A DNA stretch of 39,967 bases from an uncultured Rhodospirillaceae bacterium (GTDB taxonomy: Bacteria > Pseudomonadota > Alphaproteobacteria > MPNO01). Where the stretch lies: contig CAZPMO010000002.1 in assembly GCA_964587515.1 (NCBI GenBank), forward strand, positions 28,151 to 68,117. The letters are read 5' to 3'. Both the position numbers and the translations under genes were made by a program. Of this stretch, positions 5,758 to 37,386 are shown in pieces. The notes beneath the pieces are model-generated. The model had not been told where the DNA came from and made no database searches. It saw nothing but the letters and a program-made list of their open reading frames with translations. Every line of letters begins with the position of its first letter. The first letter of the stretch is position 1.

Positions 5758-6828
5758 CTATGCCTTCAGCACGCCGCGCTTGATCTGATCGGCTTCGATG
5801 GAATCGAACAGGGCCTGGAAATTGCCTTCGCCGAAGCCTTCATTTCCCTTGCGCTCGATAAGCTCGAAGAAGATCGGCCCGATTACGTTCTCGGTGAAGA
5901 TCTGCAACAACAGCCCCTTGCCGTCCTGGGGCGCGCCGTCGATCAGGATCGCGTCATCGGCGAGCCGCGCGAGGTTCTCGCCGTGGCCCGGCACGCGCGC
6001 ATCCACCGCCTCGTAATAGGTTTCCGGCGTCTCGAGAAAGCGGACGCCGCGCCGGCGCAGCCCCTCGACCGCCTCATAGATGTCGGCGCAGCTGAGCGCC
6101 ACATGCTGGATGCCCTCGCCACGATAGGCGTCGAGATATTCGGCGATCTGCGACTTGTCGTCGGCGGATTCATTGATCGGGATGCGGATTTTGCCGCACG
6201 GGCTGGTCATCGCCTTGCTTTTCAAGCCGGTCTTCGCGCCCTTGATATCGAAAAAGCGGATTTCTCGGAACCCGAACAACCTCTCGTAAAACCCCGCCCA
6301 TTCGTCCATGCGGCCCTGGTGAACATTGTGGGTCAGATGATCGATACCGATCAGCCCCTCGCCCGACGGCACGTTGCCGGTGCCGGGAATGGGAACGAAA
6401 TCGACGTCATAGATCGTCGCCCCGTCATAACGGTCGACCAGATAGAGCAGGCTGCCGCCGATACCTTCGATGGCGGGGATGTTGAGCTCCATGGGTCCGA
6501 TACGCGCCTCGACCGGCTTGGCGCCAAGCTCGATCGCGCGCCGCTGCGCCACCGCCGCATCCGCGACACGGAATGCCATCGCACAGGCCGACGGCCCGTG
6601 CACCCTGGCGAACGCCTGGGCGAAGCTGTCGGGCTCGGAGTTCACGATGAAGTTGACCCCGCCCTGGCGATAAAGCAGCACGTCCTTGGAGCGGTGCCGG
6701 GCAACCGCCGTGAAACCCAGTCTTTCGAACAGGTCTTTCAGCAGTTGCGGATCGGGCGCGGTGTATTCGACGAATTCGAAACCGTCGGTGCCCATCGGGT
6801 TGTCGAGCGGTGTTACGTTTTCAGCCAC
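5758..6828 (-). CDS. hppD: 4-hydroxyphenylpyruvate dioxygenase
   Basis: NPMGTDGFEFVEY, IDHLTHNV, GEGIQHVAL, LLQIFT, FFELIERKGNEGFGEGNFQALF. GTG start with AGGAG. Confidence 0.97.
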   Translation of the reverse strand: MAENVTPLDNPMGTDGFEFVEYTAPDPQLLKDLFERLGFTAVARHRSKDVLLYRQGGVNFIVNSEPDSFAQAFARVHGPSACAMAFRVADAAVAQRRAIELGAKPVEARIGPMELNIPAIEGIGGSLLYLVDRYDGATIYDVDFVPIPGTGNVPSGEGLIGIDHLTHNVHQGRMDEWAGFYERLFGFREIRFFDIKGAKTGLKSKAMTSPCGKIRIPINESADDKSQIAEYLDAYRGEGIQHVALSCADIYEAVEGLRRRGVRFLETPETYYEAVDARVPGHGENLARLADDAILIDGAPQDGKGLLLQIFTENVIGPIFFELIERKGNEGFGEGNFQALFDSIEADQIKRGVLKA

Positions 6829-17801: not shown

Positions 17802-18359
17802 ATGATGTCTACTCTGCCGCCGGCCGCGCTCAGCCATTGCGTCATGTATGTGTACGATTTCGAGATGATGAAGGATTTCTATACCAACGTGATGGGCTTC
17901 CATCTGTCCGATATCGGCAGCGCGCGGGGCAACGACATCTGTTTCATGACGCTCGATCCGGAACTCGACCATCACCAACTCGCGCTGGCCGGCGGGCGCA
18001 AGGGCGACCGCGACGCGGGCAGCCTCAACCATCTCGCCTTCCGCCTGAAGTCCCTGCCCGATTTGCGCACCCGCTACGACGCGCTGATGGCGGCCGACAA
18101 TGTCAGCGACATCGATCCCATCACCCACGGATCGTGGCTTTCGGTCTATTACCGCGACCCGGAGAACAACCGCATGGAGTTCTTCGTCGACACCCCGTGG
18201 TACATGAAGCAGCCGATCGTCGAACCCCTCGACATGTCGTTGTCCGACGACGAGATGATGCGCCTGACCGAGCAGACCTATCGCGACTGGCCGGACTTCC
18301 GCCCCATGGAGGAATGGAAGGCCGAGACCCGCAAGAAACTAACGAGCGAGCACGCCTAA
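17802..18359 (+). CDS. Single-domain VOC/glyoxalase family protein
   Basis: LSHCVMYV, FYTNVMG, HHQLAL, LNHLAF, THGSWLSVYYRDPENNRMEF. AAGGA before ATG. Confidence 0.9.
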   Translation: MMSTLPPAALSHCVMYVYDFEMMKDFYTNVMGFHLSDIGSARGNDICFMTLDPELDHHQLALAGGRKGDRDAGSLNHLAFRLKSLPDLRTRYDALMAADNVSDIDPITHGSWLSVYYRDPENNRMEFFVDTPWYMKQPIVEPLDMSLSDDEMMRLTEQTYRDWPDFRPMEEWKAETRKKLTSEHA

Positions 18360-19057
18360 CCTGCTTCGGCCAGCGCGGTCCAGGCCCAGCCGATTTCGCG
18401 CATGGCGCGGCGCGCCTCGAACACGGTGTAGGGCTCGGCGGTCAGGAAATACTTGTCGATCAGATGCCGCACCCATTCCTGGGTCTCGGCGGCGCGCGCG
18501 GGTTCGCCCCTGAGAAAGACCAGCGCGTCCTCGGCGACCCCGTAATGGCCGGCGAGGCTGTCGGCCAGCGCGCCCATCAACCCCGGCATCTGACGTTCCA
18601 GCACCCAGGCCACGCCGGCCGCCTCGGCGGCGCTCGATTGTTCGCCGTGCAGCCGCACCATGTCGATCAGATCCTCCGCCTCGGCCGAGGGGTTCTCGAG
18701 CGCCTCGGTCAGCGCCGATGGAGACATGCCCAGCGCTTCCGTCATGAGCCGCCAGCCCTTATCGGCGTCGGAATCCGCCTCGTGGGTCGCGCGGTAGAGA
18801 CGATCGAACAGACGCGTGCCGTCGTCGCGGTCGATCACCGCGATTTTCGCGATGAAGGCGTAACGGCCGCGCCCGGCGACCACCGGCGTGAGACGGGTCA
18901 GCAGCGCCTGGAGATCGGAAACCGGCAGCGCGCCCGCCAGCGCGTCGCGCCATACGGGGTGATCGGCGAGGCGGAGATGCGGCGCGTTCTCGTCTTCGGC
19001 CAGCAACGCCGCCGCCTCGCCGCTTTCGACGATGCGCTCGACCTCGACGATTTTCAT
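18356..19057 (-). CDS. Degenerate heme-oxygenase-like (TenA/PqqC/CADD fold) protein lacking most diiron ligands
   Basis: Aligns by eye with 20150..20890 (ERQMP/EAQLP, HYGVAEDALVFL/FYGLDDDTIEYF, LIDKY/LLDKY, ARRA..WAW). ATGA overlap with the upstream ORF fixes the start at 19057. Confidence 0.78.
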   Translation of the reverse strand: MKIVEVERIVESGEAAALLAEDENAPHLRLADHPVWRDALAGALPVSDLQALLTRLTPVVAGRGRYAFIAKIAVIDRDDGTRLFDRLYRATHEADSDADKGWRLMTEALGMSPSALTEALENPSAEAEDLIDMVRLHGEQSSAAEAAGVAWVLERQMPGLMGALADSLAGHYGVAEDALVFLRGEPARAAETQEWVRHLIDKYFLTAEPYTVFEARRAMREIGWAWTALAEAG

Positions 19058-19311
19058 GACGAACCCTCCCCGGCCAGCCGTTCCGCGACGCCTTCGTCCT
19101 CCAGCGAGGTGTAGGGGCTTTTCTTCACCGACCAGAACTCGATCGCGCCGTCGAAGAAGCCGGTATAGCAAACCACATCGCGTTCCTCGAGTTCGAGCCG
19201 CGCCACCACCTGGTCCGGCACCTCGACGACCAGCTTGCCGTCGCCATCCTTGCGGACCAGCACCGGGGCCGACCATTCGATGCCCTCTTGGGAATTCTCG
19301 CTGGCTGTCAT
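19054..19311 (-). CDS. 85-aa acidic protein, AbrB/MazE/SpoVT swapped-hairpin-like
   Basis: GGAGAAGGA RBS before ATG 19311. VRKDGDGKLVVEVPDQVVARLELEERDVV resembles the GxxxIP...LxLxxGD pattern. Confidence 0.65.
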   Translation of the reverse strand: MTASENSQEGIEWSAPVLVRKDGDGKLVVEVPDQVVARLELEERDVVCYTGFFDGAIEFWSVKKSPYTSLEDEGVAERLAGEGSS

Positions 19312-19322
19312 TATCCTTCTCC

Positions 19323-20150
19323 CTAATTCAGATCTCGGCTGAAATCGGCGATTAGCGCCGCCGTGCGTTGGGGTTGCGTCTCCGGGACATAGTGATCGCT
19401 GTCCTCGACGATCACGGACGGCAGGTCGGGCCGCAACGCGCATGACCGCGCGAACGCCGCCGCCGTCACGAAACGGCTGACCGCGCCCCGCACCAGCAAT
19501 GTCGGCATGGAAAGCGCACCCACCACGTCTTCCAGATTCTCGCGCAAGCCCCTTGAAGTCGATCGCATCGCGTCGCCGTCGGCGAGCGGGCGCAGCGCGC
19601 CGTCCCGGTCGCGCCCGAAGCCCCATTGCGCGCGGCGCGACACCGCGTCGGCCGGCATCATTGGATAGCGGTCGTGCAGATAGGCCTCCATTTCTTCGCT
19701 GGAGGCGAAGGCGCGGTCGCCGCCGCCGACGCGGGCGTCCAGCGCATCGAAGATTTCGGTCTCGACGAAGGGCGTGAACTCGATGGCGATCACGGCGGAG
19801 ATTTTATCGGGATAGACCGCGCCGGCGACGATGGCGTTGCGCGCGCCCAGCGAATGGCCCACCAGCAAAGCAGGTCCAGCGTCGAGATCGTCCACCAGGG
19901 CGGCCACGTCGGCGGCGAAATCGGCGCCGCGGTAACAATCGCCGGCCGGCTTGGCGCTGCGCCCGTGGCCGCGCTGATCGATGGCGACGCAATGGAACCG
20001 GTCCGACAGCGCGGCCGTCACCGGGTCCCAGCCGCGCCCGTTGGCGGTGATGCCGTGCAGGAAGATGGCGGGGGAGCCCGCACCGGTCTCGAAGGCGCAA
20101 ATCTCGACCGTCGAGAGCGCGCGGCGGCGCTCGATGATGGCGCCGGACAT
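19323..20150 (-). CDS. Alpha/beta hydrolase, 2-(acetamidomethylene)succinate hydrolase-like
   Basis: HGITAN, DQRGHG, GHSLGARN, FTPFVETE, YLxxRYP, GALRPLA, RGLR, LRPDLP, DHYVPE. These match my recollection of the Mesorhizobium loti vitamin B6 pathway enzyme along its length. Confidence 0.85.
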   Translation of the reverse strand: MSGAIIERRRALSTVEICAFETGAGSPAIFLHGITANGRGWDPVTAALSDRFHCVAIDQRGHGRSAKPAGDCYRGADFAADVAALVDDLDAGPALLVGHSLGARNAIVAGAVYPDKISAVIAIEFTPFVETEIFDALDARVGGGDRAFASSEEMEAYLHDRYPMMPADAVSRRAQWGFGRDRDGALRPLADGDAMRSTSRGLRENLEDVVGALSMPTLLVRGAVSRFVTAAAFARSCALRPDLPSVIVEDSDHYVPETQPQRTAALIADFSRDLN

Positions 20151-20890
20151 CAGAAATCGTATTTGCGGCGCAGGATCCTCAATATGCCTTCATGCATTTC
20201 GCGCCACGCCCACAGGGTTACGGCCGAGGCGCGCCGCGCACGCGCTATTTCCAGGTCCGACAAAACATATTTGTCGAGCAGGCCCGAAGATGCGTCCGTG
20301 TGCTCGATATCGGCGCGCACATGTTCGAGGAAATATTCGATGGTGTCATCGTCGAGCCCGTAGAATTTCCGCAGCGCCAACGCCGTCGCGCCGTGGGATT
20401 CCGGCAGCTGCGCCTCGTCGGCGTACCAGGTCGCGAGCCCTTCGGACGCGTTGCGGCGGCAGAAATAGGTCAGAGTGCGCGAAAACCCGATGACCTCGGC
20501 GATGGGGAAGCGCGCCGCCTCGTCGAGTTCCTCCTCGGTCGCGCCCAAATTCTTCGCGAAACGCACCCACAGGCCGGGATGCTCGCCCTCATCCTCGGGC
20601 CGCATGATCTCGTCATAGGTGTTTTCCAGCAGATGCTGCACGTCATCGCCCTTGAGGAAAGCGGCGTGGCTCAGCATCATCTTGGGCTCGGCGTGCGCCT
20701 GGAAGGACCAGCGCATCAGCGCGAAATCCTTCAGCGCCTCCTTGGGCAGCCGCCCCGACGTGATCAGGGTCACGAGCGGCGTGCGCAGATAGCGGTGCTC
20801 GGGCCGGGTGATGTCCTCGTGGATATAATCCCGGATAGCCTTCGGCGCCGATGGCGCATCGGCTCTGGCAAGGGTCGCGGTGGCGGTCAT
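20150..20890 (-). CDS. Heme-oxygenase-like diiron protein (CADD/PqqC/TenA-like) with intact ligand set
   Basis: ENTYDE...GEHPGLW, YADEAQLP, YFLEHVRADIEH (HxxxDxxH). GGGGAG RBS. TGATG coupling to the hydrolase. Confidence 0.88.
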   Translation of the reverse strand: MTATATLARADAPSAPKAIRDYIHEDITRPEHRYLRTPLVTLITSGRLPKEALKDFALMRWSFQAHAEPKMMLSHAAFLKGDDVQHLLENTYDEIMRPEDEGEHPGLWVRFAKNLGATEEELDEAARFPIAEVIGFSRTLTYFCRRNASEGLATWYADEAQLPESHGATALALRKFYGLDDDTIEYFLEHVRADIEHTDASSGLLDKYVLSDLEIARARRASAVTLWAWREMHEGILRILRRKYDF

Positions 20891-20958
20891 CGCTCGGTCT
20901 CCCCAGTTGTTCTTGGAATGATTATGGGATTCATCCCGGGCCGCGTCACGCCAAATCC

Positions 20959-21492
20959 TCAGACCGCGGGTTCGAGATCGACCTCAAGCGCCTGCAACAG
21001 GCGCGAATGCGCGATATAAGCGGCGATCATCACGCCAAGCTCGACGATCCCGCGGTCGTCGAAATGATCGCGCAGCGGATCGAACGCCGCGTCCGGCACT
21101 TCGGGGGACACCGTCATGGCGTCGACAAAAGCCAGTGCGGCGCGCTCGCGCGCATCAAAAAAATCCGACGGGCTCCAATCTTCCAGCGCGTCGCATTCGG
21201 CGCGGCTTACCCCCTCGGCCTCGGCAAGTCTGGGCACGTGCTGACGCAAAACATATGCCGAGCCCACCAGATGCCCCATGCGGATGATCACCAGCTCGCG
21301 CAGCCTTCCGTCGAGGCCGGTGCCCCAGCGCACCTGGTTAATGTGATCGAACCAGCTTTCGGCCAGCGGCGGCGAATGCAGCAGCGTCCGATAGACATTG
21401 ATCACATTGCCGCGCCGTTTGCCACGAATGCGCCCGGCAAGCTCGGCAAGCTCGGGACGGTCGTCCGGATCGATCAAAGGTACGCGCGCCAT
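20959..21492 (-). CDS. Carboxymuconolactone decarboxylase/AhpD-like protein
   Basis: NVYRTLLHSP, LDGRLRELVI, YVLRQH, ERAALAFVDAMT, IVEL. No CxxC. AAGGAGG RBS. Confidence 0.88.
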   Translation of the reverse strand: MARVPLIDPDDRPELAELAGRIRGKRRGNVINVYRTLLHSPPLAESWFDHINQVRWGTGLDGRLRELVIIRMGHLVGSAYVLRQHVPRLAEAEGVSRAECDALEDWSPSDFFDARERAALAFVDAMTVSPEVPDAAFDPLRDHFDDRGIVELGVMIAAYIAHSRLLQALEVDLEPAV

Positions 21493-21548: not shown

Positions 21549-22625
21549 ATGGCCACCATCGTCGTTCAGGACGACAAGATCCTGCGTTTTCTCGAAGTCA
21601 TTCTCGATCCGCGCGTCGCGGCGGCCCGGGTGGCGGCGTTTCGCGATTATCTCGCCTTCGACGAGCCCGACCCCGACCGCTGGTTTGACGCCCAGCGCCG
21701 GCGCGCGGGCGCGATCCGCCCGTCCGAGGTGCGTATGGTCGAGGACGAGGCGGCCATGCGCGTCGCGCTGCCGGACGCGGACGCGGTGGTGAGCGAAAGC
21801 CTGCGCATCGGCGGTGATGAACTCAGACTCGCGCCGAATTTAAAGCTGGTGCAAAAATTCGGCGTCGATGCGCGTAACATCGATCTTGCCGCCTGCAAGG
21901 ACGCGGGCGTCGAGACACGCATCCTGCGCCGCCGGGTCAACGGCACGGTGGCCGAACATGCGATCCTGCTGATGATGGCGGTCGGCCGCAAGCTGGTCGA
22001 GACCGACGGCGCGCTGGATTTCGCAGGCCTGGAAGCGCTTGGCTATCGCCCGAAGAAATTCGATCCCGACCATGTGGCGGGCGCCAACTGGGCGCGCATT
22101 CCCGGCCTGAAGAGCCTGCAGGGCGCGACGCTGGGCGCGCTGGGCCTGGGCGAGGTTGGGCGCGAGGTCGCGATGCGCGCCCATGCCATGGGCATGGAGA
22201 CTCTCTATTATCAGCGCACCCGCCTGCCCGACGAAATCGAGCGCGGCTGCGACGCCCGCTACGTTCCCTTCGAGGAATTACTGGAGCGCGCCGATTTCCT
22301 CAGCATCCATCTGCCGCTGACCGAGGCGACGCGGGGCATGATCGACGACGACGCCTTCGCGCGCATGAAGCCGGGCGCGATCCTCGCCAACATCTCGCGC
22401 GCCCATATCGTCGATCGGGACGCCCTCATCGCGGTGCTGGAGTCGGGCCGCCTCGGCGGGGCGGGGCTCGACGTCCACTACGAAGAACCCGGCGCCCCCG
22501 ATGAAAAACTTGGAACATACGCCAACGTCATCCGCAGCCCCCACATCGCCGTCGCCGCCCGCCAACACAACATGGCCGACACCGCCGAACTGGTCGCCAA
22601 CCTCGCCGATGTGCTGGGACGGTGA
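21549..22625 (+). CDS. D-isomer-specific 2-hydroxyacid dehydrogenase
   Basis: VAEHA, GLGEVG, HLPLTEATRGMI, MKPGAILANISR, LDV..EEP, SPHIA. Confidence 0.92.
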   Translation: MATIVVQDDKILRFLEVILDPRVAAARVAAFRDYLAFDEPDPDRWFDAQRRRAGAIRPSEVRMVEDEAAMRVALPDADAVVSESLRIGGDELRLAPNLKLVQKFGVDARNIDLAACKDAGVETRILRRRVNGTVAEHAILLMMAVGRKLVETDGALDFAGLEALGYRPKKFDPDHVAGANWARIPGLKSLQGATLGALGLGEVGREVAMRAHAMGMETLYYQRTRLPDEIERGCDARYVPFEELLERADFLSIHLPLTEATRGMIDDDAFARMKPGAILANISRAHIVDRDALIAVLESGRLGGAGLDVHYEEPGAPDEKLGTYANVIRSPHIAVAARQHNMADTAELVANLADVLGR

Positions 22626-22665
22626 TCGAGGCTATCGCGGTGGCAAGCGTGACGCGAGAGAAGTG

Positions 22666-22694
22666 TTGACAATATATTTTTCGGAACCCAGCAT
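22666..22694 (+). promoter_or_regulatory. Putative sigma70 promoter of the ABC operon
   Basis: TTGACA (22666-22671), 17-bp spacer, CAGCAT (22689-22694). Confidence 0.5.
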
Positions 22695-22966
22695 GCCTCC
22701 CAAGTTCGAACGGGCAGGCGAATTAAACGAGATCCCTTGAATGCACGATGAAACGAATGGGGCGGGTGTATCGTCGATGGGTGCGATGGGATGTAATTCC
22801 GTGTCACCTCTCTTCAACCGTCACGAATTCGCGCTCGTCGTCCTATGCAGCCGGGGCGCTATCGTATCGATCGCCAAGCCCGTCACCTGCGGCAAACTAG
22901 TCGGAGCGGACCGGTGTCCGTAAGAGGCAAGAGCGGTCCGATCAACACAGGAAAAGGAGGAATAAA

Positions 22967-23953
22967 GTGAAAAAAGCAACAATGCTGGCATGTCTGGGTA
23001 TGTTTGTTTCCATCTTTGTCATCGCTCCCGCGACGGCTCAAAACCTTAAAAAAATCAAAATCGTAGTACCTCGAAACAGCGCCTTCGTCTTGAATTACTT
23101 CGGGGGCAGAGAGGCCGGGATTTACCGCAAGCATGGTATCGACCTCGAGATCGACGCGCGTCCGTTCAAGGGCTTCGCGGCAAGTCTTCCCGCCAAAGAG
23201 GCCATGGTCACGACCTATATGGGCACGGCCGCCGTGGCGCGCATTAACAAGGGGTTCGACTGGGTCATAATCGGCGGCGGGCTAACCGTCATGCAGGAGG
23301 TCTTTGTCCTCAAATCGTCCCCCTTCAAGACAATCAACGATTTGCGCGGCAAGAAATTCGCGAGCTGGTCCACGGGCGCCGGCGCCTTCAAGGCGACACG
23401 GGCGGTCATCATGGACGGTTTCGGGATCGACGTCCTGAAAGACACCGCGTTCGTGCAGGCCGCGGCACCTGCCTTGATCAAGCTGCTGGAACGGGGAAAT
23501 GTCGATTCCATGTTCAACATCAGCTCCCTGACGATCGCGGCGGCCGCGCAACCGAATAAATACCGCTCGATCTTTGCGCCCAATGATTACTGGAAGAAAA
23601 AAACCGGGCAGCCCATCGTATGGTCCGCGCCGATCGTCGCATGGAGAAGTTGGGTCGACGAAGACCGCGCCAGGGCCAAGGCCTTCGTGGCGGCGACCCA
23701 TGAATCGTTCAAATGGCTCCGCAAGCCGAAAAATCTGGATGCCGCCGTCAAACAGTTCGGGACCCTGGCCGCGGTTAAAAACCAGGCTCAAGCCAATGTT
23801 TATAAAAAATGGCTGGGTGAAAAACGCGTATTCTTGGCGGAGTGGAACCGCGAAACGCGCGATAACCAGTGGAAGTTCCTCGAAATGGCCGCGAAGCGCG
23901 GCGTACTGGGGAAAGTGCCCTCCAAGGAAAAACATGGGCTGATCCTCGAATAG
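22967..23953 (+). CDS. ABC substrate-binding protein, NitT/TauT/SsuA/THI5-like
   Basis: Signal peptide, YRKHGIDLEI, SPFKTINDLRGKK, LERGNVDS. AAGGAGG RBS before GTG. Confidence 0.88.
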   Translation: MKKATMLACLGMFVSIFVIAPATAQNLKKIKIVVPRNSAFVLNYFGGREAGIYRKHGIDLEIDARPFKGFAASLPAKEAMVTTYMGTAAVARINKGFDWVIIGGGLTVMQEVFVLKSSPFKTINDLRGKKFASWSTGAGAFKATRAVIMDGFGIDVLKDTAFVQAAAPALIKLLERGNVDSMFNISSLTIAAAAQPNKYRSIFAPNDYWKKKTGQPIVWSAPIVAWRSWVDEDRARAKAFVAATHESFKWLRKPKNLDAAVKQFGTLAAVKNQAQANVYKKWLGEKRVFLAEWNRETRDNQWKFLEMAAKRGVLGKVPSKEKHGLILE

Positions 23954-23987
23954 CGAACTGGCTCTCAACCTCGTAAAGTAGAACAAA

Positions 23988-24758
23988 GTGAAATCACTAT
24001 TTCTCAAGCCCGGCGTCTTGCCGGGGGGGGTAACGATTATCGTCTGCCTGGTTCTTTGGCACGCGATATCCCTCTTTTTCTTGGATGTCTTCCTGCCGGG
24101 TCCTCTAACGTTGCTCGACCGTATGATCACGGTCTATGGGGACCCGGCGTCCTTCCTTGTGGTCTGGGTGACCCTCGTCCGAATAATTGAGGGCGTTGTC
24201 ATTTGCATGGTTATCGGGACGGCGCTTGGCCTGTTAATGGGGCGCGAGCGGAACATTGAGGCCTTTTTCGACAGTTGGGTCATGGTTCTGCTGACGTTTC
24301 CGGCGGTTTGCTGGGCGTTTCTCGCGGTTTTATGGTTTGGGTTATCGGACATCGGCCCGATTCTCACCATCATCCTGATCGTATTTCCATTTGTCACCAT
24401 GAACATTTGGGAAGGCACCAAGGCGGTGGAAAAGGGATTGATCGATATGGCGACCGTATACAGGGCCAACCGATCCCTCATGATTCGCAAGGTGATTATT
24501 CCGCAGCTTATGCCATTTTTCTTTTCCGCTCTCAGGATCGCCCTGTCCTTGTCGTGGAAAATCGCCCTGGTCGGCGAGGCTTTCGGAGTCGGCAGCGGTG
24601 TCGGTCAAAAGCTGATCTACTGGTTCGAGGATACACGGGTCGATATGATGCTCGCCTGGGGCATCAGCTTCATGATCTTCATGGTGGCCATCGATCTCAT
24701 CGTGTTCCGCCTGTGGGAGAAACGCACCTTCGCCTGGAGACATAAAATTGCAAACTGA
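23988..24758 (+). CDS. ABC permease (NitT/TauT type)
   Basis: Hydrophobic helices, EAA-like loop LIDMATVYRA, IIPQLMP, WKIALVGE. Confidence 0.9.
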   Translation: MKSLFLKPGVLPGGVTIIVCLVLWHAISLFFLDVFLPGPLTLLDRMITVYGDPASFLVVWVTLVRIIEGVVICMVIGTALGLLMGRERNIEAFFDSWVMVLLTFPAVCWAFLAVLWFGLSDIGPILTIILIVFPFVTMNIWEGTKAVEKGLIDMATVYRANRSLMIRKVIIPQLMPFFFSALRIALSLSWKIALVGEAFGVGSGVGQKLIYWFEDTRVDMMLAWGISFMIFMVAIDLIVFRLWEKRTFAWRHKIAN

Positions 24759-25575
24759 GAATAGTCCCGTGAATGTGAAACCCGAGCATGCCGCTGGGGC
24801 GTCGACGGTTGTCGCGGTAAACAACCTGACGAAGAAATTCAATTCTCCAATGGACGGAGAGGAATTCGTTGTCCTGGATTCCGTAAGCCTGCATGTGGAC
24901 GAGGGCAAATTCGCCGCCATCGTCGGACCTTCGGGCTGCGGCAAATCCACATTGTTGAACATCATCGCCGGCATCGAGACCCATGATCCCGATGAAGGGG
25001 GCTCGGTCGAGGTTTTCCCGAGAGCAGGCCACTCGACGTTGCGGGTCGGCTATGTCTTCCAGAACGCCCGGCTGCTCAACTGGCTGACGGTCGAGGGCAA
25101 CATTCAATTTGCGCTGGAGGCGCAGGAAATCCCCAAGGAGAGATGGCGCGAACTGGTCACGACATATCTTGAGATGGTAGGGCTCGAGGGGCAGGAAAAG
25201 AACTTCCCCTTGAACCTGTCGGGCGGCATGCAGCAACGGGTCGCCATCGCCCGCGCGCTCGCCATCGAACCCGACATTCTGCTGATGGATGAGCCGTTCA
25301 GCCATCTCGACGAAATCACCGCCAGGAAGATGCGGTTCGATCTGATGGAGATCCTGAGCCACGCCAAGCCCACCATCCTGTTCGTGACCCATGATCTGGG
25401 CGAGGCGGTCTTTCTTTCCGATCATATTTACATGATGAGCACCAAGCCGGCTCGGATCTTCAAGCAGATCTCGATCGATGTCGAGCGGCCGCGAAAACCC
25501 GAAGACCCGGTGATTTTCGACCTGGAAAAAGAATTGGTCCGGGAATTTTTCAGCGTCCTGGACGAGCAGGATTAG
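24748..25575 (+). CDS. ABC ATP-binding protein (NitT/TauT type)
   Basis: GPSGCGKST, LSGGMQQR, LLMDEPF, FVTHD. TTG start after GGAGA (start uncertain). Confidence 0.95.
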   Translation: MQTENSPVNVKPEHAAGASTVVAVNNLTKKFNSPMDGEEFVVLDSVSLHVDEGKFAAIVGPSGCGKSTLLNIIAGIETHDPDEGGSVEVFPRAGHSTLRVGYVFQNARLLNWLTVEGNIQFALEAQEIPKERWRELVTTYLEMVGLEGQEKNFPLNLSGGMQQRVAIARALAIEPDILLMDEPFSHLDEITARKMRFDLMEILSHAKPTILFVTHDLGEAVFLSDHIYMMSTKPARIFKQISIDVERPRKPEDPVIFDLEKELVREFFSVLDEQD

Positions 25576-26358
25576 ATGTCTAACCGCGCCCGAGGCATAT
25601 GTCTGAGAGTAAGCTCGATCTTCGTCCTGCTGATCATCTGGTGGGTCGCCGCGATTTTGATGGATGATGTCGAGGTCCTGCCCGGGCCGGTGCTGATCTT
25701 TACGACCATTTGGTCGAATCTGATCGGTGTCGGGCCGGAAGGGAAATCGCCCTATTTCCACATGGGGGTCACGCTGGCCCGCACTTTCATCGCTTTCGGC
25801 GCGGCCATGCTGGCGGGAATAGGAATTGGCCTGACCATGGGCCTCCGCAAGACCTTCGAGCATTCGCTCATGGCCTTGATTCCACTGTTGCTCACCATGC
25901 CTACGATCCTCATGGTCTTTCTCGCCGTACTCTGGTTTGGTTTCACCGAAGTCGGCAGCCTGGTCGCCGTCGTCGGCGTGGTCACGCCCTTCGTGTCGGT
26001 AAATATGTTCGAAGGCACCAAGGCCATGGATAAATCACTGATCGACATGGCGAAGACCTTCCGCGCGGACAACCGCATGCTTGTCATGAAAGTCTATGTG
26101 CCGCAGTTGCTGCCGTACATTTTTTCCGCCTTCCGCTTCGGATTCGGCATCACGTGGAAGATCGTCGCCTTGGCGGAGACCTTCGGCATCAAGTTCGGCA
26201 TCGGGTACATGTTCTTCTTCTGGTTCGAACAGTTCAACATGGAACAGGTCCTTGCCTGGATCATCATGTTCGTCATCCTGATGCTCATTCTTGAACACGG
26301 CGTCTTCGCCCGGCTCGAACACAAGGCGTTCGCCTGGCGACCGTCGCATTCCCTGTAG
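25576..26358 (+). CDS. Second ABC permease (NitT/TauT type)
   Basis: Paralog of 23988..24758 (LAVLWFG, EGTKA, LIDMA, PQLLPY, WKIV, FAWR). Confidence 0.9.
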   Translation: MSNRARGICLRVSSIFVLLIIWWVAAILMDDVEVLPGPVLIFTTIWSNLIGVGPEGKSPYFHMGVTLARTFIAFGAAMLAGIGIGLTMGLRKTFEHSLMALIPLLLTMPTILMVFLAVLWFGFTEVGSLVAVVGVVTPFVSVNMFEGTKAMDKSLIDMAKTFRADNRMLVMKVYVPQLLPYIFSAFRFGFGITWKIVALAETFGIKFGIGYMFFFWFEQFNMEQVLAWIIMFVILMLILEHGVFARLEHKAFAWRPSHSL

Positions 26359-26416: not shown

Positions 26417-26863
26417 CTAACGGTCGACGGTTTCCTTACCCTCGCCGCCGAACCTTGTGGCGAAATAGCCGATGACCAGGCCGATGATCGCGCCCTCGGC
26501 GACGAACCAGAAAGGCGACGTGAGAACGCCATCCGCGCCGAACGTGGCGTGCATGGCCGCCGTCATGGCGTCATAAGCGAAGAAGGTGAGGACGAAATTC
26601 ATCCATGCGCCGAGGAACGGCGCGCGCACCCACCAGGGCATCGGCAGCTTAAGAACCGGGTGCCACGTAAAGACCCCGAACACGCCGATGATCGCGCCCA
26701 CGGTGGTATACCAGAGCAAAATCCCCCAGCGCAGCAACCAGCCGGCCTCGGGCATGAAATACGGCAGGAAAACAAACCCGATAAGCCCGAAGACCAACCC
26801 GATCCCCTTACCGATCGCGATCCGCGTCACCAGCGACGGATTTCCGAAAATTTTCGACGGCAT
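26417..26863 (-). CDS. Hypothetical multi-TM membrane protein (148 aa)
   Basis: About four hydrophobic segments. GGGGAAAGGG upstream of ATG 26863. Confidence 0.75.
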   Translation of the reverse strand: MPSKIFGNPSLVTRIAIGKGIGLVFGLIGFVFLPYFMPEAGWLLRWGILLWYTTVGAIIGVFGVFTWHPVLKLPMPWWVRAPFLGAWMNFVLTFFAYDAMTAAMHATFGADGVLTSPFWFVAEGAIIGLVIGYFATRFGGEGKETVDR

Positions 26864-26900
26864 TGTTCTACCCTTTCCCCTTTCACCTCGATCTGCCAAA

Positions 26901-26918
26901 CCCCGGATCAAGTCGGGG
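26901..26918. repeat. Solitary copy of the REP-like hairpin seen at 3766-3923
   Basis: ccccggatcaagtcgggg vs ccccggatcaagttccgggg at 3901-3920. Confidence 0.65.
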
Positions 26919-26981
26919 AAAGCAACTTTTTTTGGCCAAGGTACGTCGCAAATCGGTCCCCGGGGGACTTGGCCGCCCTTC

Positions 26982-27674
26982 TCACATCAGCGCGTAGCCT
27001 TTTTCGTAGTGCAGGTAGATGCCGTCGAAATAGAACCAGCGGAGCGCGGCGCCCTCGCGGGCGTAGTGGATGCACATGTCCTGGCTTTCGCGGTCGGTGC
27101 AGTGGCGTTCCAGCACCTCGAAGGCGCGGTCGCCGTGCTCCACATCGACCTCGGCGTGGAGCCAGAAATGTTCGATCTCGTCATCCGGGAAATTGTAAGT
27201 CTCGCGCAGCGCCGGCAGCACCTTGGAATAGAGCCGGGGCGACTGGGTTTCGCTGGCGATGTTGCTGCACGCCACGCCGCAATACCAGGGTTGCTCCGTC
27301 GCCACCTGAACCTGCCAGTTGGCCCACAGCCGCGTGGTCGGCAGGCCGCGTCCGGCCTTGACCTTCGCCGGGTCGGCGCCGTTGGCGGCGGCGAATTTCA
27401 GGACGATTTCCATGTGCGGATTATCGGGGTCTTCCTCCTCGTTGAAATTCGCCAGCATGGCGTCAACCACGTCCGGCGGCGCCTTGGCGCAGATGTTGAA
27501 CACCGAGCGCTGGAGCAGCGTGGTGATCCAGTGCCAGTGCTCGACGCCCCAGCCCATCATGGCGTTGCGGCCAAGCTCGCCCTTTGCCCAGGCCTCGGTC
27601 ATCGGATGATCGGCGCAGTGACGCTCGTTCACCGCGTCCTCGAGCGCGCGTCGGAAGTTGCTCTTGCCGGCCAT
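26982..27674 (-). CDS. Heme-oxygenase-like diiron protein (PqqC/CADD/TenA-like), intact ligands
   Basis: DHPM..AWAKGEL, NFNEEEDPDNPH, SETQSP, FWLHAEVDVEH, RWFYFDGIY. AAGGAGG RBS before ATG 27674. Confidence 0.9.
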   Translation of the reverse strand: MAGKSNFRRALEDAVNERHCADHPMTEAWAKGELGRNAMMGWGVEHWHWITTLLQRSVFNICAKAPPDVVDAMLANFNEEEDPDNPHMEIVLKFAAANGADPAKVKAGRGLPTTRLWANWQVQVATEQPWYCGVACSNIASETQSPRLYSKVLPALRETYNFPDDEIEHFWLHAEVDVEHGDRAFEVLERHCTDRESQDMCIHYAREGAALRWFYFDGIYLHYEKGYALM

Positions 27675-27688
27675 GGATTCGCCTCCTT

Positions 27689-28453
27689 TTATGTGGTCGC
27701 GCTTCCGGGCCCTGGCTCGACCAGGGCGCGGAAGGCGATCGAGAGCGTCGTCACCGCGAGCGCGATGCCCAGCAGCGCGACGGTCTGTTGCAGTAACGCG
27801 TGGATGAAACTCGCCGTCAGCGCGCCGCCGCCGATGGCCCGCATCAACAGGCCGAACGCGACCTGGACGGGCGCCAGCGGCAACCCGACGATGACGGAGA
27901 TTGCCAGCAACCGCCAGCCATTGCCGGCGGTGCGTTCCCAGCAATCGCGCACCGTGAGCGCATGGTTGATGGCGGCGGCCGGGAACAGCAGCGACAGGCG
28001 GACGAACAGCAGCATGCCGCCGATGACCGCGATCACGATCACCGCGAACGACACAGCCGACTGCACATTGTTGGACGCACCGCTGGCCAGCAGGATAGGC
28101 GCGATGCTGCCCGCCGCGACCACGACCATGATGGTCGCGTAAAGCGCCAGCGTGACCAGCAGGAACCGGGTGTGGCGGCGGCGCCAGCTCAGCGCGGCGG
28201 CCACGGTATGAACTTCGCCCGGCAACAGAAATCGCCGGTGCCAGGCGACCGAGAACACCACCCAGACAATCGCCGCGACAATGGAAATGACGAGATCGAG
28301 CCCGCGCCCGCCGCGCGCGAACGACTGTATGGCGACGGTGACGATCGCGAGCGCGAGGATGGCGGGGAAGGCCAGCGCCAGAAAATCCCGCCGCGCCCGC
28401 CAGACGAAGCGATAGGCCGCGCCGGCGGTTGCGAAAATGGCGAGGCGCGGCAC
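27689..28453 (-). CDS. Hypothetical integral membrane protein
   Basis: About six TM segments, VAWHRRFL, RLSLLFPAAA, WERTAGNGWRL. Confidence 0.75.
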   Translation of the reverse strand: MPRLAIFATAGAAYRFVWRARRDFLALAFPAILALAIVTVAIQSFARGGRGLDLVISIVAAIVWVVFSVAWHRRFLLPGEVHTVAAALSWRRRHTRFLLVTLALYATIMVVVAAGSIAPILLASGASNNVQSAVSFAVIVIAVIGGMLLFVRLSLLFPAAAINHALTVRDCWERTAGNGWRLLAISVIVGLPLAPVQVAFGLLMRAIGGGALTASFIHALLQQTVALLGIALAVTTLSIAFRALVEPGPGSATT

Positions 28454-36126: not shown

Positions 36127-36210
36127 GATGGTTTCCCTTGAACAGCGCCGGAGACCCTACCACCCGGGCAGGGAAATTGACTAGTCCGCCGGGCGATCTA
36201 TGATCCGGGC

Positions 36211-37386
36211 ATGGAACAATTTTTGACGGGATTGGCGGCGGTTTCGCTGGCGGCGTGGATCTGGCTGCTGTTTCTGCGGGGCGGATTCTGGAAGTGCTCG
36301 GAAATGCTCAACGGCGCCGGGCCCGAGCCCGCCGAATGGCCCACGGTGGTGGCGATCGTGCCGGCGCGCAACGAGGCCGAAGTGATCGGCCGCGCGATCG
36401 AAAGACTTTCCGCCCAGGATTATCCGGGGTCGTTCTCGATCATCGTGGTCGACGACGACAGCGACGACGGCACGGCGGACGCCGCGCGAGCGGCTGACGA
36501 TTACGCCGCGCGAGCGCTCGATCTGGTCACGGGCGAGACGCCACCCGCCGGCTGGACGGGCAAGATGTGGGCGCTGCACGCCGGTCTCGCGCGCGCCGAC
36601 AAGATCGCCGCCGACGCGACCCTGGTGTGGTTCACCGACGCCGATATCGAGCACGATCCCGATACCCTCCGCCGGCTTGTCGCGAAGGCCGAGGCCGGCG
36701 CCTTCGATCTGGTCTCCACCATGGTGCTGTTGCATTGCCGAAGCTTCTGGGAGCGACTGTTGATCCCGCCCTTCGTGTTCTTTTTCCAGAAGCTTTACCC
36801 ATTTCCCCGCGTCAACGATCCCGCCTCGCCGGTCGCGGCGGCGGCCGGCGGCTGCATGCTGGTCCGGCGCGGCGCGCTGATGCGCATCGGCGGCATCGCG
36901 GCGATCCGCAACGAGTTGATCGACGATTGCGCGCTGGCCCGCGCCATCAAGCGCCAAGGGCCCATCTGGCTTGGGTTGACGCGCGCCTCGCGCAGCATCC
37001 GTCCCTATAGCACGCTTGCGCCGATCTGGAGCATGGTCGCGCGCACCGCGTTTCACCAGCTCGGCTATTCAGCGTTGCTGTTGGCGGGCACGGTCGCGGG
37101 AATGGTGATGTTATACGGTGTCCCGCCACTCGCGGTGTTCGGCGCGCCGCTGTATGACGCATTTTGGACGCAATCTCTCGGCACCCTGACATATTTTACC
37201 ATGGGGGTGGTGTTTTGGCCGACGGCGCGGCTTTATGGACAATCCGCGATTGCGGTACTGCTTCTCCCGGTCGCTGCTTTGTTCTATGTCGCCATGTGCC
37301 TCGATTCGGCGCGGCGGCACTGGATCGGCAGGGGCGGCACATGGAAGGCGCGACACCACGCGCCGGAAACAAGTTCGGCGCGGTAG
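36211..37386 (+). CDS. hpnB: Hopene-associated family 2 glycosyltransferase HpnB
   Basis: VPARNEA, VDDDSDDGT, GWTGKMWA, FTDADI, FFFQKLYPF, AAAGGCML, LIDDCALA, MVARTA. Lies directly upstream of hpnC. Confidence 0.9.
   Translation: MEQFLTGLAAVSLAAWIWLLFLRGGFWKCSEMLNGAGPEPAEWPTVVAIVPARNEAEVIGRAIERLSAQDYPGSFSIIVVDDDSDDGTADAARAADDYAARALDLVTGETPPAGWTGKMWALHAGLARADKIAADATLVWFTDADIEHDPDTLRRLVAKAEAGAFDLVSTMVLLHCRSFWERLLIPPFVFFFQKLYPFPRVNDPASPVAAAAGGCMLVRRGALMRIGGIAAIRNELIDDCALARAIKRQGPIWLGLTRASRSIRPYSTLAPIWSMVARTAFHQLGYSALLLAGTVAGMVMLYGVPPLAVFGAPLYDAFWTQSLGTLTYFTMGVVFWPTARLYGQSAIAVLLLPVAALFYVAMCLDSARRHWIGRGGTWKARHHAPETSSAR

Follow-up and report, generated by a model that had tools for sequence, protein, structure and literature searches.

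A conserved gene module for a putative heme-oxygenase-like dimetal oxygenase, its ligand-poor paralog, and a small protein, with a possible role beside (E)-2-(acetamidomethylene)succinate hydrolase in vitamin B6 catabolism

A run of five co-directional open reading frames (ORFs) on the minus strand of contig CAZPMO010000002.1, from an uncultured Rhodospirillaceae bacterium (assembly GCA_964587515.1), includes genes for a putative catalytic heme-oxygenase-like (HO-like) dimetal oxygenase (HDO), here called HDOa; a hydrolase resembling the enzyme that acts on (E)-2-(acetamidomethylene)succinate (E-2AMS); an 85-residue protein, small85; and a second HO-like protein, HDOb (Table 1). The run lies in the stretch of 39,967 nt analyzed here (positions 28,151 to 68,117 of the contig), which we refer to as the window. 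Across other genomes and metagenomes the conserved unit is HDOa, small85, and HDOb: three genes, not five. It is highly probable that this multi-protein HDO module acts together with E-2AMS hydrolase in the catabolism of pyridine carboxylates or vitamin B6. More specifically, the module may fill the slot held elsewhere by MHPCO, the flavin-dependent oxygenase of 3-hydroxy-2-methylpyridine-5-carboxylate (MHPC), and open an MHPC-type ring; we assign this reading, whose substrate and reaction are read from gene context, a probability of about 0.5.

The original prediction, made from the sequence alone, described five co-directional genes with tightly spaced junctions, and both the ORF list and the sequence place them at exactly that span, 18356-21492 on the minus strand. 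HDOa and the hydrolase gene share a 1-nt overlap (TGATG), an 11-bp gap containing the Shine-Dalgarno-like GGAGAAGG leads from the hydrolase gene to small85, and small85 and HDOb overlap by 4 bp (ATGA). The first gene of the run, encoding a CMD-family protein, is set apart from HDOa by 68 bp. This CMD/AhpD-like gene had been counted as part of the operon unit, but tblastn finds it beside the cassette in none of the 87 other loci (0 of 7 in genomes, 0 of 80 in metagenomes); it is lineage-specific, lies outside the conserved unit, and was rejected as a member of the module. The best PDB matches of its product are uncharacterized CMD proteins, and the absence of a CxxC motif from the translation makes a role as an AhpD-type peroxidase unlikely.

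The remaining genes recur together, although they are uncommon in reference genomes. HDOb-like genes were found in 6 of 78 genomes of the order and in 2 of 401 genomes of a class-wide sample, and HDOa in 1 of 401 genomes of a phylum-wide sample, the window's own genome being included in these counts. A search of genome contigs with a single HDOb yielded one locus, and a metagenome scan with an HDOa alignment yielded 80; cassette genes occur on many metagenome contigs and on metagenome-assembled genomes labelled Rhodospirillales, Burkholderiales, and Acidimicrobiales. In all seven genome loci other than the window, HDOa, small85, and HDOb are present in the same order. The hydrolase gene is complete in four of the seven, a remnant in one (L011), and absent from two (L014, L015), whose genomes hold only weak, generic alpha/beta hydrolase matches. 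Among the 80 metagenome loci, HDOa is followed directly by the hydrolase gene in 58 and directly by small85 in 11. The other 11 are unclassified: seven have fewer than 300 bp downstream, and four, with 390-821 bp, show neither pattern and are otherwise arranged or apparently truncated. These four comprise two with an unrelated downstream frame (L037, L090), one with a truncated HDOa followed by AT-rich sequence (L041), and one with only the start of the hydrolase gene (L055).

Wherever the flank is long enough, the trio is complete. Hydrolase-form metagenome loci carry small85 in 37 of 37 cases with at least 1150 bp downstream and HDOb in 29 of 29 with at least 1500 bp, and hydrolase-less loci carry HDOb in 7 of 7 with at least 600 bp. 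The 4-bp overlap between small85 and HDOb is kept in 31 of 35 loci, and HDOa and the hydrolase gene overlap or lie within 30 bp of one another in 27 of 34. Genome and metagenome loci are not entirely separate samples, as metagenome locus L035 is probably the same contig as genome locus L012 (same length and content); the HDOa-(hydrolase)-small85-HDOb arrangement is far beyond chance. Co-occurrence of four core genes, as first proposed, therefore stands for the trio but not for the hydrolase, which the hydrolase-less loci lack.

HDOa matches PF14518 with 61.8 bits (cutoff 28.9) and TIGR04305 with 86.2 bits, short of that model's cutoff of 200. Its closest solved relatives are the p-aminobenzoate (pABA) synthases NePabS and CADD (PDB 9pj4, E 1.8e-15; 1rcw, E 7.8e-10). 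The six dimetal ligands E94, H104, E159, H190, D194, and H197 are invariant in all 32 aligned sequences, among 77 invariant columns, so that the earlier description of an intact HDO was borne out. An E-H/E/H-D(E)-H pattern on three core helices is given, in the accessible text of the source, as the motif that defines dimetal HDOs (PMC11363339). The spacing from the first Glu to the following His is 10 residues in HDOa and 7 in CADD, a difference due to an invariant three-residue insertion that contains R-P. With CADD and NePabS (1rcw, 8va9, 9pj4), HDOa has in common the E-H-E-H-D-H ligand pattern and the HO-like fold; unlike them, it has partner proteins, a catabolic context, the three-residue insertion, and no sacrificial Tyr or Lys. 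The sacrificial residues of CADD, named as Tyr27 and Lys152 in the available part of the source (PMC11965152), align to V40 and T169, and the two columns hold V/I/L and T/L/S/A in the 32 HDOa sequences, never Tyr or Lys. With both residues absent and TIGR04305 below cutoff, a self-sacrificing pABA synthase of the CADD type was rejected for HDOa. A further PF14518 protein, 25% identical to HDOa, is encoded at L027:6651-7388 (G020:C31), 1.6 kb from the MHPCO-like gene of that genome.

Judged by BLASTP (24% identity, E 4e-8), HDOb is a true but distant paralog of HDOa. The window protein has no Pfam match and reaches only 23.4 bits against TIGR04305 (E 3.8e-5; cutoff 200), but its AlphaFold2 (AF2) model, with a pLDDT (predicted local distance difference test) of 89.5, has an HO-like helical fold, for which Foldseek returns PqqC (2.6e-5) and CADD (3.3e-5) with TM-scores of 0.72-0.82, those to CADD being 0.75-0.82. 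HDOb had been described as a ligand-less paralog. The paralogy is upheld, but one of the six ligands is retained (E154, equivalent to HDOa E159), the other five positions reading A90, K100, E185, A189, and T192; ligand-poor is therefore the more exact term. The 39 invariant columns of HDOb include many polar residues, among them K71, D79, D99, D129, H137, E154, R155, Y172, R216, R217, and E221.

That degree of polar conservation exceeds what a pure scaffold needs, and it raises the possibility that HDOb is not a structural beta subunit but a separate metal-free enzyme or binding protein, PqqC- or TenA-like, which would act on the next intermediate, for instance tautomerizing, isomerizing, or hydrating the first ring-opened product before hydrolysis. 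The identity of its best fold match, the metal-free oxidase PqqC, and the complex model described below, in which small85 contacts HDOa only, agree with such a role. The frequent 4-bp overlap with small85 and the strict co-occurrence of the two genes are, however, also expected of subunits of one complex, and we consider a separate HDOb enzyme somewhat unlikely. A rhomboid-family gene lies convergent to and adjoining HDOb in three genome loci from two orders (L012:1799-2587, L013:7246-8136, L016:9631-10254).

The small85 protein belongs to no curated family, its sole match being PrlF at E 0.13. Its AF2 model has a mean pLDDT of 79.6; the top Foldseek matches are MazE, SpoVT, and AbrB, all weak (E 0.04-0.3, none at E<=0.001) despite probabilities of about 1, and the structural lead in the Atlas is MazE, at 0.87. 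The window protein does not match PF04014, whereas a distant relative, P0223, does so at 7e-4. A MazE/AbrB/SpoVT-like beta core is thus predicted, on weak fold matches. A profile search of 1.84 billion proteins found 29 representatives of small85 at E<=1e-3. Fourteen columns are invariant in 22 sequences, and they are grouped in the second hairpin and in a C-terminal K-K-x-P-Y-x-S-L tail.

A complex of an intact HDO, its paralog, and the small protein had been proposed at the outset, and structure prediction supports one of its contacts, that of small85 with HDOa. HDOa, HDOb, and small85 were modelled as three chains, with small85 as the scored partner and with three controls. Small85 scored 0.70, against 0.02 for the best control, and its score fell to 0.00 once HDOa was replaced. 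The mark for this score is reached by 58 of 80 solved complexes and by 2 of 110 mismatched pairs, counts that hold only roughly here because the job ran on custom alignments with three chains. The runs had at least 92% of contacts in common, with a partner pLDDT of at least 79. All confident contacts of small85 are with HDOa, at residues 88-102, 167-171, and 188-196, on helices that bear E94, H104, H190, D194, and H197 as well as the family-specific insertion. On the small85 side the predicted interface involves its invariant residues; Tyr67 is placed against HDOa residues 93, 97, and 189, beside the ligands E94 and H190.

Gene fusions bear on the same question. Two of the 29 relatives (P0210, P0216) are fusions of the hydrolase with a C-terminal small85, and a fusion is present as a single open frame in a genome locus (L013:8850-9941, G024) and in 3 of 41 metagenome loci. 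Linker length varies among the in-frame fusions (L013, L012/L035, L040, L043, P0210, P0216). Such fusions point to a physical link that would join hydrolase, small85, and oxygenase; since small85 persists where the hydrolase is missing, its primary partner would be the HDO.

The predicted resemblance of small85 to MazE extends to its beta core and to a partner-binding C-terminal tail, as in the swapped-hairpin proteins MazE, AbrB, and SpoVT, and it is conceivable that small85 is a DNA-binding autoregulator of this type. Unlike MazE, it has neither a PF04014 match nor a toxin neighbor, its predicted partner is an oxygenase, and it is found fused to a hydrolase. A hydrolase fusion and a conserved coupling to HDOb are ill-suited to a repressor, IclR regulators lie beside several of the loci, and the fold matches that suggest regulation are no better than E 0.04. 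Small85 could also be a sacrificial protein substrate, with Tyr67 and Lys63/64 consumed: the nearest solved relatives of HDOa are self-sacrificing enzymes, yet HDOa lacks their Tyr and Lys, and small85 has an invariant Tyr67, modelled beside two metal ligands, and an invariant Lys64. Nonetheless, an operon that is catabolic and includes a transporter and a hydrolase is an implausible setting for the stoichiometric consumption of a protein. Regulator and sacrificial substrate, taken together, are very unlikely.

Over residues 5-270 the hydrolase matches the Mesorhizobium E-2AMS hydrolase 3kxp with 249 bits (E 4.3e-73), the next PDB match following only at E 1.7e-15. In the available text on the 3kxp-type enzyme, Ser106 and His258 form the catalytic pair, Ile41 and Leu107 the oxyanion hole, and Arg146, Arg167, Tyr168, Arg179, and Tyr259, with Glu262, hold the two carboxylates of the substrate (PMC3538738). 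These positions were mapped by hand from the 3kxp alignment, in which chain numbers equal native numbers plus 36. All ten residues named there are kept in the window protein: I34, S100, L101, R140, and R161 correspond to Ile41, Ser106, Leu107, Arg146, and Arg167, and Y162, R173, H253, Y254, and E257 to Tyr168, Arg179, His258, Tyr259, and Glu262, respectively. Of the 61 sequences compared, metagenome cassettes supplied 54, genome cassettes 4, and canonical clusters 3; each position is covered by 54-61 of them, and the residues are kept in every covering sequence, except that R173 is found in 58 of 59, L101 in 60 of 61, and I34 varies as I/V/L. The earlier assignment as an enamide hydrolase gains precision from this, and because the active-site residues are kept across the family, the substrate of the cassette hydrolase is most likely E-2AMS or a compound very like it. 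In the otherwise intact cassette of L011 (G071) the gene has decayed to a 57-residue C-terminal remnant (about 6184-6333), and in L055 to an N-terminal stub.

Where this hydrolase occurs without HDOa, it keeps the company of the flavoenzyme. Three genomes of the phylum-wide sample have a hydrolase ortholog but no HDOa, and in all three it clusters with a FAD_binding_3 gene. The order in L024 and L025 is GMC oxidase, GntR, hydrolase, FAD protein, class II aldolase, GMC oxidase, 3HCDH; the FAD protein of L024 is MHPCO itself (838 bits to 3alj), and the cluster is the canonical Mesorhizobium B6 cluster. Its proteins were searched against 88 HDO loci (80 from metagenomes, 7 from genomes, and the window). 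Of these, 62 have the hydrolase; 19 have a 3HCDH protein, 50-58% identical to the L024 enzyme, that resembles the dehydrogenase of 5-formyl-3-hydroxy-2-methylpyridine-4-carboxylate (FHMPC); and 25 have a class II aldolase that is 26-34% identical to the L024 homolog of 3-hydroxy-2-methylpyridine-4,5-dicarboxylate (HMPDC) decarboxylase. Not one of the 88 loci has MHPCO, GntR, or either GMC oxidase, and no FAD_binding_3 gene occurs in any of them. Where at least 3 kb of flank is available, 15 of 18 hydrolase-form loci have the 3HCDH gene, the aldolase gene, or both, typically on one strand in the order aldolase, 3HCDH, DctQ, DctM, DctP, HDOa, hydrolase, small85, HDOb.

In the hydrolase-less loci a decarboxylase-type gene lies directly upstream of HDOa. 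Among the eight with long flanks, five have a gene resembling 4,5-dihydroxyphthalate decarboxylase (9jp7, E 4e-79); in other loci it is a class II aldolase gene. As a specific marker the former neighbor is weakened by the presence of about twenty such paralogs in the 4.9-Mb genome G000 (for example C131:1587-2561 and C2:12997-13800); the L014 protein used as the query for these has no Pfam match but does match PDB 9jp7. Given that HDOa is directly coupled to the hydrolase and that a decarboxylase gene lies upstream, the HDO would stand between decarboxylation and hydrolysis, which is the position of MHPCO; and as the products of the hydrolase are central metabolites, the HDO must act before it.

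The cassette clusters thus resemble the Mesorhizobium system of MHPCO (PDB 3alj/3gmb) and E-2AMS hydrolase in having the same hydrolase, an oxygenase gene adjoining it, and FHMPC-dehydrogenase-like 3HCDH and class II aldolase neighbors. They differ in the oxygenase: MHPCO is a single FAD enzyme, whereas that of the cassette, whose role is suggested by its position, would be an HO-like dimetal protein with two extra proteins.

The original prediction had the HDO replacing the flavin oxygenase. The contrast between canonical clusters, with hydrolase and MHPCO, and HDO loci, with MHPCO in 0 of 88, favors such a replacement, but several observations weigh against it. Proteins 48-51% identical to the L024 MHPCO are encoded on other contigs of G000, G020, G024, and G442, that is, in four of the four checked genomes that have a cassette with an intact hydrolase, so that replacement of MHPCO is not proven; G071, with the hydrolase remnant, has no MHPCO-like protein above 32%. 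Turning MHPC into E-2AMS, a monooxygenation, requires two electrons, and the cassette has no conserved reductase: reductase or ferredoxin genes are absent from the conserved core and do not recur in the scanned flanks. The hydrolase is missing from two of seven genome loci and from 11 of 69 classifiable metagenome loci. The class II aldolase neighbors are only 26-34% identical to the Mesorhizobium-type decarboxylase. An FHMPC-dehydrogenase ortholog was not found in the window's genome (E<=1e-40), nor the aldolase neighbor in the window, and the B6 context therefore comes from relatives and not from the window locus. Lastly, the complex prediction for small85, with its three chains and own alignments, departs from the setup in which its score was calibrated.

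The MHPCO-like genes give some weight to the idea that the module serves the same pyridine-carboxylate or B6 pathway at another step, such as oxidation of the 5'-hydroxymethyl group of 4-pyridoxic acid or a hydroxylation giving the 3-hydroxypyridine, while a distant MHPCO-like flavoprotein opens the ring. None of the 88 loci has the GMC-type 4-pyridoxic acid dehydrogenase either, so that more than one slot is formally open, and N- and C-oxidations are typical of HDO chemistry in the portion of the literature available. The other slot, however, would be closed by FHMPC dehydrogenase, since this enzyme can also convert 4-pyridoxic acid and FHMPC into one another. The close HDOa-hydrolase junctions and the decarboxylase gene directly upstream in hydrolase-less loci likewise favor the MHPCO position. 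The G000 copy of the MHPCO-like gene (365 bits to MHPCO, 67 to NicC) lies on C92 (L026:3628-10863), in a second N-heterocycle-type cluster of that genome. The flavoprotein itself is 49% identical to MHPCO, and its neighbors encode a molybdenum hydroxylase and the FAD subunit of that enzyme, a VOC dioxygenase, and an MhpC-like hydrolase; having its own adjacent hydrolase and this different company, the gene appears to belong to a separate pathway. In G020, G024, and G442, nothing around the MHPCO-like genes links them clearly to B6. Action of the module at another step therefore seems unlikely.

The absence of an FHMPC-dehydrogenase ortholog from the window's genome, and cassette neighbors unlike those of soil-type clusters, could instead indicate a different substrate: another pyridine-3-carboxylate, such as 5-hydroxynicotinate or a trigonelline-type compound, with the same kind of hydrolase acting on an (acylamino)methylene-succinate. 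The trigonelline pathway ends in an analogous hydrolase step. But the acetyl-pocket and carboxylate-binding residues of the cassette hydrolase are the same as in the Mesorhizobium-type enzyme, and HDOa is 60-90% identical among loci with and without B6 neighbors, which argues for one substrate; we regard a different pyridine carboxylate as quite unlikely.

Ring opening in the MHPCO position could proceed as follows. HDOa, small85, and HDOb would form one dimetal oxygenase, acting immediately upstream of E-2AMS hydrolase and converting MHPC, or a close 3-hydroxypyridine carboxylate, into a ring-opened N-acyl enamide. HDOa would bear the dimetal site and activate O2, while small85 would clamp the ligand-bearing helices of HDOa by means of its beta-hairpin and conserved C-terminal tail and, being fused to the hydrolase in some lineages, may also keep that enzyme near the oxygenase. 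HDOb, its site lost, would be made in step with small85 and is probably a non-catalytic second protomer or a partner that binds an intermediate. The hydrolase would then yield succinic semialdehyde, acetate, ammonia, and CO2.

Soluble bacterial multicomponent diiron monooxygenases consist of an alpha subunit, a non-catalytic paralogous beta subunit, and a small subunit or effector. The logic of the cassette is alike: a catalytic subunit, a site-less paralog, and a small protein predicted to lie over the ligand helices. Unlike those enzymes, HDOa is HO-like rather than ferritin-like, small85 is predicted to be MazE/AbrB-like rather than MmoB-like, and there is no conserved reductase or ferredoxin gene. 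Within its own family, HDOa shares PF14518 and the core-helix metal motif with UndA, BesC, SznF, FlcD/FlcE, AetD, and SktA (PMC11363339), which the accessible texts describe as biosynthetic monomers or homodimers. In that same body of text, characterized HDOs serve natural-product or cofactor biosynthesis, their dimetal cofactors are called unstable, and none is described with a ligand-poor paralog and a small partner or in heteroaromatic ring opening. According to the available part of the FlcD paper, about 9% of HDO groups have no clear motif and are possibly metal-free; no heteromeric system is described there. Nor did the literature searched, which included few subscription journals and no supplements, describe an HDO that is heteromeric or one that takes part in the catabolism of hydroxypyridine or B6. 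The homarine hom operon (HomA/HomB; PMC13236597) was considered as a precedent and rejected, since it is, in its accessible description, of the flavin type with different products. Unlike the hom/TgnAB-type two-component flavin ring openers, the cassette contains no detectable flavin domain.

Our fullest interpretation, offered tentatively and as one less likely than not to hold in full, is that this is the first multi-subunit HO-like dimetal oxygenase, in which a catalytic protomer, a site-less paralog, and a MazE-like clamp that orders the helices and tethers the hydrolase would together open a 3-hydroxypyridine without flavin and pass the labile enamide straight to the hydrolase, in the lower B6 route (4-pyridoxic acid/MHPC) of the uncultured bacteria behind the metagenome contigs. 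If so, the module would represent a new quaternary architecture for HDOs, with a candidate cofactor-stabilizing partner; it would be a catabolic HDO, extending the chemistry of the family to heteroaromatic ring opening; and it would be a non-orthologous replacement of MHPCO in the breakdown of vitamin B6, without a flavin enzyme. The available part of a 2026 preprint describes B6 catabolites as exchanged signals in marine microbiomes (10.64898/2026.01.20.700305), and enzymes that consume such catabolites are for that reason of ecological interest.

Table 1. Coordinates of the cassette genes and of adjoining features in the window.
Feature	Position	Strand	Length or basis
CMD-family protein	20959-21492	-	177 aa; PF02627 E 1.4e-11
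HDOa, putative catalytic HO-like dimetal oxygenase, CADD-like	20150-20890	-	246 aa; PF14518
E-2AMS hydrolase ortholog, alpha/beta fold	19323-20150	-	275 aa; 3kxp match
small85, predicted HDOa partner	19054-19311	-	85 aa; no curated family
HDOb, ligand-poor HO-like paralog	18356-19057	-	233 aa; BLASTP to HDOa, fold
Promoter-like site in the gap between the CMD gene and HDOa	20921-20949	-	GTGACG, 17 nt, CATAAT; weak evidence
D-2-hydroxyacid dehydrogenase, divergent neighbor	21549-22625	+	Pfam
ABC transporter with NMT1/THI5-like binding protein, divergent neighbor	22967-26358	+	Pfam

The promoter-like site ahead of HDOa agrees with the consensus at 9 of 12 positions; the region has four such sites against 0.8 expected, and the evidence is weak. 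At the other end of the run, the stop codon of HDOb overlaps that of a convergent VOC/glyoxalase-family gene (17805-18359, plus strand) at 18356-18359, which leaves no space for a terminator between the two.

The neighbors of the window cassette, a 2-hydroxyacid dehydrogenase and an NMT1-type ABC transporter, differ from those of soil-type clusters. These divergent genes (21549-26358) may nevertheless be associated with the cassette, and the substrate of ring opening may here be taken up directly. A 2-Hacid_dh gene likewise lies near the cassette in L089, and L023, a canonical hydrolase/MHPCO cluster, also encloses an NMT1-type ABC transporter. In several metagenome loci, genes for AA_synth (PF06684), a transglutaminase-like protein, and a class I fumarase recur downstream of the cassette (L048, L051, L052, L099, L103). 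Two further ORFs of the window, at 26586-28142 (plus strand, 518 aa) and 36181-37056 (minus strand, 291 aa), match no Pfam family at E<=1e-5. The remainder of the window is rich in catabolic genes, including those for TauD, a sulfatase, HPPD, a VanA-like Rieske oxygenase, and a luciferase-like monooxygenase.

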